This document shows positions 16,106-41,920 of a DNA stretch of 64,000 nucleotides, piece by piece. A program made the translations under genes and the position numbers. Source of the DNA: Candidatus Aenigmatarchaeota archaeon (GTDB lineage Archaea; Aenigmatarchaeota; Aenigmatarchaeia; GW2011-AR5); contig JACQID010000007.1 of NCBI GenBank assembly GCA_016198685.1, positions 1 to 64,000 on the forward strand. The letters run 5' to 3'. The notes beneath the pieces were generated by a model. It was not told where the DNA came from and ran no database searches. It saw only the letters and a program-made list of their open reading frames with translations. Each line of letters opens with the position of its first letter. The stretch's first letter is position 1.

Positions 16106-16251
16106 GGGTCTGTAGTCTAGCTTGGTAGGATCGGGCCTTCGGGATGCGCAGGGATTCGGTTTCCCGTCTTGGGATTCCTTCCCGAGGATATGAGTCATAT
16201 TCGCGCGCATAGAAATAGGCTCAGACGGGAGTTCAAATCTCCCCGGACCCA
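16106..16251 (+). tRNA. tRNA-Pro(CGG) with 73-nt intron at 37/38 (16144-16216)
   Basis: Acceptor GGGTCTG/CGGACCC, anticodon stem GGGCC/GGCTC, anticodon CGG at 16140-16142, T-arm GGGAG-TTCAAAT-CTCCC. Confidence 0.88.
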
Positions 16252-36938: not shown

Positions 36939-37039
36939 GGGCCCGTGGCTCAGCTTGGATAGAGCGCTTGGCTTCGGTCATAAGGAAGAAACCAATGAAA
37001 AGTCCATAGAGGTCGGGGGTTCGAATCCCTCCGGGTCCG
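36939..37039 (+). tRNA. tRNA-Arg(TCG) with two 13-nt introns (36978-36990 at 37/38; 36995-37007 at 41/42)
   Basis: Acceptor GGGCCCG/CGGGTCC; anticodon stem CTTGG/CCAAG after splicing; BHB helices CTTC/GAAG and GGAC/GTCC. Confidence 0.88.
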
Positions 37040-37080
37040 CTTCGATAAAGCCTTATAAAGAATTCTGAAATACGCTGTCC

Positions 37081-40716: not shown

Positions 40717-41340
40717 ATGCGAACAGTCTGGGACAGCATAGCCGAAGGATGGAATTCTTTCAGGTCGTTTCCGATAGAGGAAGCCAAAGCCTTTCTTCAG
40801 GATTGGAGAGGCGTTGTGCTTGACATAGGATGCGGGTCGGGAAGGAATTTTCTGAAAGGCATGACGTTCGTAGGACTGGACATCTCTTATAACATGCTTC
40901 TTCATGCGAAGAAGAATGCGGAAAAGAGAGGGGTAAGGGCATACTTGATACGTGCAGATGCTGCGGCATTGCCGTTAAAGCCGGCATTTGAAAGGATACT
41001 GCTGATTGCAGTATTGCATGCGCTAAGGGAGAGAAGGGCATGCGTTTCCGAGGTTCGCAGGCTTTTGGGCGCCCGGGGCAAAGCACTTGTTACGGTGTGG
41101 AACAAGGACCAGCCGCGCTTCAAGAAAGCGCCCAAGGAAAACGAAATACCATGGGAAAGCGATGGCAAGGAATACATGAGATATACATACCTTTTCACCA
41201 AACAAGAACTTGCCTCGTTCCTTCAGAAAAGCGGTTTCGAGGCCGAGATTGCTGAAAGCTCCAAAAAGGCTTTTAATGCCTTCTCCAAGAATATAGTGGC
41301 AGTGTTGAAGCGGGGGTCCCCTAGTGGCCAATGGGACTAG
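40717..41340 (+). CDS. Class I SAM methyltransferase, Trm9/ALKBH8-like
   Basis: VLDIGCGSG, IAVLH, RR...EVRRLL, VTVWNKDQ, IPW, RYTYLF...EL; stop codon lies inside tRNA-Leu. Confidence 0.8.
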   Translation: MRTVWDSIAEGWNSFRSFPIEEAKAFLQDWRGVVLDIGCGSGRNFLKGMTFVGLDISYNMLLHAKKNAEKRGVRAYLIRADAAALPLKPAFERILLIAVLHALRERRACVSEVRRLLGARGKALVTVWNKDQPRFKKAPKENEIPWESDGKEYMRYTYLFTKQELASFLQKSGFEAEIAESSKKAFNAFSKNIVAVLKRGSPSGQWD

Positions 41341-41445
41341 GCTTAGGTGACTGTCCGGCCAATGGGACTAGGCTCAGATGACCGGAACTGGTCGAAGACA
41401 CCTAGTGGCTTAGTGCCTTCGCAGGTTCAAATCCTGCCCCCCGCA
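41310..41445 (+). tRNA. tRNA-Leu with internal duplication; anticodon TAG (one intron) or CAG (two introns)
   Basis: Acceptor GCGGGGG/CCCCCGC, long variable arm, T-arm GCAGG-TTCAAAT-CCTGC; repeat units start at 41326 and 41357. Confidence 0.88.
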
Positions 41446-41497: not shown

Positions 41498-41920
41498 ATG
41501 CCAATACGGAAGGGCGTTGTCGGCGTAGTCTATCGCAAGGGCAAGAATGAGCCGGAGTTTCTCCTTTTGCACAGGCAGCAGGGCTGGAAAGGCTGGGAAT
41601 TCTCCAAGGGTGGAATTGAATCAGGCGAGGATGATGAAGAGGCTCTTGTGCGTGAAATACGCGAGGAAACAGGCATCGGGAAAGTCAAAGTCCGGGCCAG
41701 AATGGCTGCCGAGATATCTTACAAATATCCGGCATGGTACAAGAGCGGATATACCGGTACAAAACAGTCGGTTTTTCTTGTTGAAGCGCTTGAGGATAGC
41801 GTTTCTGTGAGCCAGGAGCATGATGATTACACATGGGTTGATTATAGGTCAGCGCTGAAGATGCTCAAGCATAAAGGGCAGAAAAAGGCACTGTCAGAAT
41901 CATTCCAGGCATTGCTCTAA
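41498..41920 (+). CDS. NUDIX hydrolase
   Basis: KGGIESGEDDEEALVREIREETG; EHDDYTW. Confidence 0.92.
   Translation: MPIRKGVVGVVYRKGKNEPEFLLLHRQQGWKGWEFSKGGIESGEDDEEALVREIREETGIGKVKVRARMAAEISYKYPAWYKSGYTGTKQSVFLVEALEDSVSVSQEHDDYTWVDYRSALKMLKHKGQKKALSESFQALL

Follow-up and report, generated by a model that had tools for sequence, protein, structure and literature searches.

The window (the whole stretch of DNA that was analysed, 64,000 nt) is located on contig 2 of assembly G000, which comprises 935 kb in 8 contigs with 45% GC and a completeness of 93.7%. The host belongs to the Aenigmatarchaeota, a DPANN phylum. Region 41310-41445 on the forward strand is a single class II tRNA-Leu gene of 136 nt. 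It has the acceptor strands GCGGGGG/CCCCCGC, the T-loop TTCAAAT, a long variable arm and the discriminator A at 41445; CCA is not encoded. With introns allowed, ARAGORN reports tRNA-Leu(tag) with a 52-nt intron at 41310-41445, and the Leu covariance model R1 gives 85 bits for this locus. The gene is missed by ARAGORN without introns and by Rfam at the gathering score. Upstream, AATATA (41290-41295, +; read from the sequence, 15-20 nt before the mature 5' end) is a possible archaeal TATA box, with TTTTAAT (41271-41277) as an alternative.

Two ORFs adjoin or overlap the tRNA gene. A 207-aa ORF (40717-41340, +) overlaps it by 31 nt and ends with the stop codon TAG at 41338-41340. Its Pfam matches are only to generic class I SAM methyltransferases (Methyltransf_25/11/31), and a Trm9-type identity is not supported by that search. 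A NUDIX hydrolase (140 aa, 41498-41920, +) is encoded 52 nt 3' of the tRNA gene. At 36939-37040, ARAGORN calls a "Leu(caa)" which lacks a long variable arm and is not a Leu tRNA.

The first-pass annotation, made from the letters alone, had described a repeat with a period of 31 nt inside the tRNA gene, its copies differing at the wobble base and at position 37. A direct-repeat search confirmed this. It found a lone family in the gene, 41326-41351 and 41357-41382, 26 nt each and spaced by 31 nt, with 24 of 26 positions identical (92%). The differences are T41344/C41375 (the wobble base, tRNA position 34) and G41347/A41378 (position 37). An exact repeat of 18 nt within a gene of 136 nt is far above chance expectation. 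Tandem Repeats Finder did not find the repeat at this locus.

Based on ARAGORN and on scoring of BHB motifs, the gene can be divided as follows (↓ marks a cut site). The common 5' exon (41310-41331, +) holds the 5' strand of the acceptor stem, the 5' strand of the D-stem (CCC, 41319-41321) and the start of the D-loop; it ends with GGCC AA↓ and is part of both predicted products. Alternative exon 1 (41332-41347, +; 16 nt) contributes the remaining D-arm, the 5' strand of the anticodon stem (CTAGG) and the loop CT-TAG-G, with the anticodon TAG at 41344-41346. The spacer TGACTGTCC (41348-41356, +) follows. Its GACTG can pair with a downstream TGGTC, and its TCC can pair with GGG at 41333-41335. 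A second GGCC AA (41357-41362, +) is the 3' half of a BHB-like motif in the D-loop (B1), with the cut after 41362. The GGCC at 41357-41360 pairs with that at 41326-41329. Alternative exon 2 (41363-41378, +; 16 nt) has the same parts of the D-arm and anticodon stem as alternative exon 1 and is identical to it apart from positions 34 and 37, the loop being CT-CAG-A and the anticodon CAG at 41375-41377. It is followed by intron B2 (41379-41399, +; 21 nt), a hairpin GACCG-GAAC-TGGTC and then GAAG AC↓, which is the 3' BHB half common to the two splice paths described below. The common 3' exon (41400-41445, +) holds A38, the 3' strand of the anticodon stem (CCTAG), the long variable arm, the T-arm and the 3' strand of the acceptor stem.

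Splice sites were evaluated with a BHB geometry of a 4-bp central helix, two 3-nt bulges, each cut after its second nucleotide, and outer and inner helices. In path A, one canonical 37/38 intron (41348-41399, +; 52 nt), supported by BHB scoring and ARAGORN, contains the spacer, alternative exon 2 and B2. The cuts are after 41347 and 41399, the bulges are GG↓T and AC↓A, the central helix CTTA/GAAG has 3 of 4 pairs, and the outer and inner helices have 6 bp and 5 bp, the latter formed by GACTG of the spacer and TGGTC. In path B, two introns are removed. The first (B1, 41332-41362, +; 31 nt, from D-loop to D-loop) takes out the TAG exon, with cuts after 41331 and 41362, a fully paired central helix (GGCC/GGCC, 4 of 4), AA↓T bulges, an inner helix of 3 bp (spacer TCC with GGG) and an outer helix of 1 bp. 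The second is B2, with cuts after 41378 and 41399, 2 of 4 pairs in the central helix CTCA/GAAG, and outer and inner helices of 6 bp each. Paths A and B2 exclude each other because they rely on one and the same 3' half and TGGTC; GACTG and GACCG can each pair with the latter. Both paths, their cut sites and the competition of the two 5' donors had been put forward in the first-pass annotation; our counts agree with it, including its caveat that the second intron of path B has only 2 of 4 central pairs.

The predicted products are Leu(UAG) (41310-41347 joined to 41400-41445) and Leu(CAG) (41310-41331, 41363-41378 and 41400-41445), each of 84 nt. The only differences between them are at gene positions 35 and 38 (tRNA positions 34 and 37), and ARAGORN calls both as full-length Leu tRNAs (tag and cag). 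When the motifs are enforced, folds A and B are near-isoenergetic (-55.7 and -56.4 kcal/mol). The unconstrained minimum-energy fold (-62.3 kcal/mol) has the second anticodon stem and the GGCC:GGCC helix. A relaxed BHB filter passes 46 site pairs within the 136-nt gene. B1 is thus unremarkable by this measure, and BHB-likeness in one gene is not evidence on its own. The relaxed enumerator combined with ARAGORN validation returns both 84-nt products along with off-target products. At a stricter threshold it misses many real tRNA genes of this genome and is therefore unusable as a screen for further dual genes. A scan of metagenome contigs for the spliced junction gave no match.

The other Leu tRNA genes of the genome are those for Leu(UAA) (C1:246084-246178), Leu(CAA) (C3:85816-85970) and Leu(GAG) (C1:183513-183628). 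Leu(CAA) has three introns (at 30/31, at 37/38 and in the variable loop) and is miscalled by ARAGORN as Arg(tcg). Its first intron carries TTGAGTT, the complement of its own anticodon loop; an apparent GAG cassette in this "Arg(tcg)" gene was rejected, since TTGAG is part of that complement. Leu(GAG) has an intron in the T-loop; it was missed by the first scans and by ARAGORN and was found by BLAST with the gene of a relative. No further UAG or CAG Leu gene was found in the 935-kb, 93.7%-complete genome by the Leu covariance model and three pattern scans (anticodon loop plus T-arm plus acceptor; a 5-bp hairpin with a YTCAGRN loop; Leu-type variable arms). The hairpin pattern alone has 21 matches in the whole genome, none of them tRNA-like. 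Thus, an intact separate Leu(CAG) gene, which according to the first-pass annotation would weaken the functional relevance of the duplication, was looked for genome-wide and not found. As judged from the sequence, there are four Leu genes for five isoacceptors, and the absent one is what the second repeat unit would supply. In 371 long ORFs, CUG accounts for 18.4% and CUA for 6.0% of the Leu codons (864 CUA codons).

The genome has a single EndA gene, a 203-aa ORF on contig C3 with PF01974 and PF02778, representing the N-terminal and catalytic domains, and it codes for RtcB (568 bits). Alpha-type EndA of DPANN archaea has been reported to accompany disrupted tRNA genes (PMC4033280, PMC5829648). 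Broad-specificity loop inserts were reported for DPANN alpha4 endonucleases in an analysis that did not cover the Aenigmatarchaeota (PMC5829648).

A crude screen of all long introns for wobble-variant cassettes flagged three (Leu, Pro(CGG) and a locus called "Cys" by ARAGORN), which is about the chance number, and it gave no sign of alternative anticodon cassettes in other isotypes of this genome. The 73-nt intron of Pro(CGG) (16106-16251, +) holds CTTGGG, resembling a TGG loop. This is probably a chance match, as about three of this kind are expected and Pro(TGG) has a gene of its own.

The full layout is kept in three further species-level assemblies of the same genus, at 97, 95 and 86% identity, so that the duplication is indeed present in close relatives, as the first-pass annotation had proposed to check. 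In an alignment of the four genes, alternative exon 1 (41332-41347) is unchanged and alternative exon 2 is nearly invariant. The next 21 nt, which are intron B2, form the most variable segment; a 7-nt deletion and the majority of the substitutions lie there. One relative has TTCAGG as its second loop and GGAG as its 3' half, which pairs with C34, and with U34 through a G-U pair.

The layout extends beyond the genus. A pattern consisting of the UAG loop, a gap, G-Y-Y-CAG-R, a gap, and the 3' strand of the anticodon stem with the variable arm matched 49 loci among 185,579 species genomes. All are in archaeal assemblies, and every named one is from the Aenigmatarchaeota. A shorter forward pattern matched in 75 of 371 genomes of the phylum, as compared to 4 control matches; the match in G295 lies in coding DNA and was rejected. 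A further 12 of the 371 genomes were matched by a pattern in which CAG precedes UAG (reversed order), and at least five known dual genes escape both patterns. Altogether, dual UAG+CAG genes occur in about 91 of the 371 species genomes, from more than 20 families.

Four layouts were encountered: the D-loop repeat as described here, a swap at position 30/31, two cassettes each with a preceding intron, and the reversed order. In the 30/31 swap, an exon ending with NNNN AG↓G and the UAG loop are followed by a spacer, at the end of which stand the complement of NNNN and two further bases, and then by G-CTCAGA. Where there are two cassettes, each has a splice half of this kind in front of it. In every layout, a splice half is kept ahead of the second cassette. 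The helix that would join the exon to the second cassette is paired at 4 of 4 positions in 30 of 35 genes, as compared to 23 of 1225 control windows (1.9%) taken from the same inserts. This helix covaries with the exon (CGCA:TGCG in 15 genes, GGCT:GGCC/AGCC/GGCT in 11 and CGCT:GGCG in 4). The corresponding helices of the D-loop type are GGCC:GGCC, GGCC:GACC, GGTC:GGCT, GGTC:GACC and GGTC:AACC. In many of the 30/31 genes, the spacer also contains CCTAAG, the complement of the UAG loop, which provides B1 with an inner helix of 5-9 bp.

In samples that were not selected for the cassette, every distinct Leu(TAG) gene with a long insert carries it (17 of 17 for inserts of at least 31 nt, 12 of 12 for those of 24-30 nt). 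The motif YNCAGR, with an intact CAG, is found in all 29 cassettes; two bases further on, conservation has fallen to 30-40%. A C stands at position 34 throughout and was never converted to the T of the neighbouring copy. For the shared 3' half, CTTA is a better partner than CTCA in most genes.

Some genes deviate from the common form. About a tenth of the CAG cassettes read G-CC-CAG-R, with C33 in place of U33 (L038, L049, L050; G032, G356-G358, G362). U33 is near-universal in tRNAs; the C33 cassettes may be tolerated, or they may be decaying copies. Genome G074 has an intronless Leu(UAG) gene plus a second gene in which TTTTCAGAT follows a UAG loop (C3:44905-44953, C1:59105-59126), which may be an intermediate or a decaying dual gene. 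In G356 (C26:41930-42073), a Leu-like gene has the loop CTAAGGA with the anticodon AAG; A34 is unusual in archaeal tRNA-Leu.

The distribution of separate Leu(CAG) genes was compared with that of the dual genes. The intact arm of a stand-alone Leu(CAG) gene was matched in 46 of the 371 genomes, with no control match. It occurs in none of the about 91 genomes with a dual gene, as opposed to 12 of the about 45 genomes in which Leu(UAG) has no cassette. Before the 12 reversed-order genes were reclassified, the counts were 0/79 and 12/57 (Fisher P = 1.4e-5), a value that overstates the significance because related genomes are not independent. Separate CAG and UAG genes are mostly adjacent and have near-identical bodies (G017, G022, G215, G073, G295, G296, G300, G320). 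In genus g140, G300 carries Leu(CAG) and Leu(UAG) as separate genes with 45 nt between them, flanked by a tRNA gene and an ORF; the syntenic locus of its congener G299 is occupied by a single dual gene. Fusion of two such neighbours would leave no separate CAG gene in any case, so the complementary distribution is not proof of function. In G046, G083 and G118, good genomes with a cassette-less Leu(UAG), a moderately sensitive covariance-model search found no Leu(CAG) at all, and Leu(CAG) may thus be dispensable in places.

The stand-alone Leu(CAG) genes have the loops TTCAGGG, TTCAGAG and CTCAGAA. In this phylum, A37 is thus a natural base of Leu(CAG), and the loop of the predicted CAG product (CTCAGAA) is one of those found in stand-alone genes. 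The first-pass annotation had listed A37 of the CAG product as a caveat; this base is present, but it is not anomalous.

We consider alternative cis-splicing of one precursor into Leu(UAG) and Leu(CAG) the best reading of the locus, and a probable one. All support for it is computational. The earlier proposal of two isoacceptors from one locus is supported by conservation, covariation and the absence of separate genes. The weight of the case is on purifying selection (the invariant C34-A35-G36, the covarying splice half and the layouts which keep one logic), because the comparison of distributions is limited.

In the proposed mechanism, one precursor would be transcribed and would fold into either of two mutually exclusive sets of BHB motifs. 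In fold A, the first (UAG) anticodon arm would pair with the common 3' strand CCTAG, the endonuclease would excise 41348-41399, and RtcB would join the exons to tRNA-Leu(UAG). Fold B would instead pair CCTAG with the second copy of the anticodon stem, and the two GGCC tetramers with each other. Excision by the endonuclease of 41332-41362, which holds the UAG exon, and of 41379-41399 would then yield tRNA-Leu(CAG), whose body is the same. Because the two donors would compete for one acceptor half (GAAG AC↓A and TGGTC), each transcript would become one product or the other. We infer that the cell makes both cuts, in some ratio, and that it charges and uses both tRNAs. For the phylum as a whole, it seems rather likely that the Aenigmatarchaeota have an undescribed class of disrupted tRNA genes, in which mutually exclusive anticodon cassettes are spliced in cis through BHB motifs into two isoacceptors and the competing folds set their ratio. 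A bolder form, in which the product ratio is regulated, e.g., by temperature or growth state, is rather doubtful.

Among the alternatives, the one that survives best is an ordinary Leu(UAG) gene with a canonical 52-nt intron, in which the CAG unit is never spliced into a tRNA and is a remnant of the fusion or duplication of tandem UAG and CAG genes. We regard it as unlikely. It fits with path A having the best canonical motif and being the sole ARAGORN report, with B1 being relaxed and having a single outer pair, and with B2 having half of its central pairs here. Relatives have tandem UAG/CAG genes with near-identical bodies that could be fused, and some seem to be without any Leu(CAG). A remnant is, however, expected to decay, but the CAG is intact in 29 of 29 unselected genes with a long insert, and its C34 has not been converted to the neighbouring T. 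Furthermore, the splice half ahead of it covaries with the exon, exon 2 is conserved beside a diverging intron, and four layouts, including the reversed order, preserve the same logic.

It is still less probable that selection keeps the CAG unit for something other than decoding: its fold might steer path A splicing or set the time of it, it might serve as decoy to a modification enzyme, or it might belong to a stable circular intron RNA. Conservation indicates selection but not which function is selected, and Leu(UAA) and Leu(CAA) introns of relatives carry functional-looking box C/D-like guides to their own anticodon loops. A structural function would permit compensated changes, yet the CAG triplet is invariant, and a BHB half is positioned exactly in register to join the CAG unit to the exon. 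Also, the loops CTCAGA+A and TTCAGG recur in the stand-alone Leu(CAG) genes of the phylum, and no box C or box D motifs flank the CAG unit. With both boxes absent, a box C/D guide in the intron of the 41310-41445 gene was ruled out.

The introns of the relatives deserve a description of their own. Those in Leu(UAA) and Leu(CAA) genes contain CTTAAG or CTTGAG, complementary to the anticodon loop of the same gene, followed by a box C-like motif (RTGATGA/TTTTGA). This combination is found in L011, L020, L026, L027, L029-L032, L039, L041, L045 and L051. These introns look like intron-encoded box C/D guides for 2'-O-methylation of the loop; such a guide is known from the tRNA-Trp of Haloferax. A second, recurring intron family, CCCTTT(T)C...GCGCAAAGCG...CGGAAA, occurs at differing positions, in different tRNA genes and in different genomes (L038, L042, L046, L050, L060, L089, L090 and Ser/Glu-like tRNA genes). 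It recalls the spread of tRNA introns that has been described for Thermoproteales.

That the gene is a two-intron gene making just Leu(CAG), the UAG copy being part of its first intron, is very improbable: the minimum-energy fold prefers the second stem and the GGCC:GGCC helix, but CUA codons are used and need a UAG tRNA for which no other gene was found, the UAG cassette does not vary, and in most genes the shared 3' half favours CTTA over CTCA. The chance of a collapsed or chimeric join of two Leu genes, which the first-pass annotation had asked to exclude, is negligible: the genome is a metagenome-type assembly in 8 contigs, but the same layout is found in three other, independent assemblies of the genus (86-97% identity, each with its own substitutions) and in about 90 species assemblies from many studies.

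Alternative cis-splicing into two isoacceptors can be compared with known kinds of disrupted tRNA genes. Path A by itself is a canonical BHB intron at 37/38, with 3-nt bulges and a central helix of 3 of 4 pairs. Genes with multiple introns, including non-canonical BHB introns, are described for Thermoproteales, Korarchaeum and ARMAN (PMC4033280, PMC5829648). Similar to these, introns in the D-loop or at 30/31 exist besides those at 37/38, and the BHB motifs are relaxed. There, every intron is removed and a single product results, whereas here two exclusive patterns would give two products, and the relaxed non-canonical D-loop intron B1 would be required only for the CAG product. As far as can be read from the sequence, the two mutually exclusive patterns each have conserved splice signals, as in alternative splicing.

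In the split tRNA-Glu of Nanoarchaeum equitans, one 3' half is used with two 5' halves (UUC and CUC) (Randau et al. 2005, as summarised in PMC4033280). This case is also from a DPANN host with a reduced genome, and isoacceptors differing in the wobble base have a common 3' half. It involves, however, trans-splicing of separately transcribed halves, and the 5' halves are full duplicates rather than cassettes within a gene. The tri-split tRNA-Gly of Caldivirga maquilingensis (Fujishima et al. 2009, as summarised in PMC4033280) was the sole known case of pre-tRNA "alternative splicing" in a 2019 account, which called such splicing "very rare" (PMC6582322). There, too, one body and alternative anticodon pieces yield synonymous isoacceptors through BHB-type motifs, splicing endonuclease and ligase, but the pieces are encoded at distant loci and are joined in trans via complementary leaders. 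The predicted products described here likewise have one body common to isoacceptors and a different anticodon piece, whereas every piece is contiguous within 41310-41445, in one gene and one transcript of 136 nt, with no separate loci, and the choice would be made by competing intramolecular folds. Full-text literature searches found no description of a class of dual-anticodon, cis-spliced tRNA genes.

A further analogy is found outside tRNA. Mutually exclusive exons of the Dscam type in eukaryotic mRNAs are chosen by competing RNA pairings between one docking sequence and several selectors. The docking sequence pairs with one selector copy only, so that exactly one cassette is retained, as proposed here. 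That system is spliceosomal, eukaryotic and concerns protein-coding RNA, and the machinery is not homologous.

Standard tools miss the gene or report Leu(UAG) only, which makes about a quarter of the sampled genomes of the phylum look as if they had no Leu(CAG). tRNA genes are taken to follow the rule of one gene, one tRNA. If our reading is true, a gene whose anticodon exons are interchanged by cis-splicing would extend the list of disrupted archaeal tRNA genes by a new entry, and it would represent alternative splicing without a spliceosome. It would also provide a clear use for tRNA introns: in a reduced genome, one gene would be saved while two decoders are kept.
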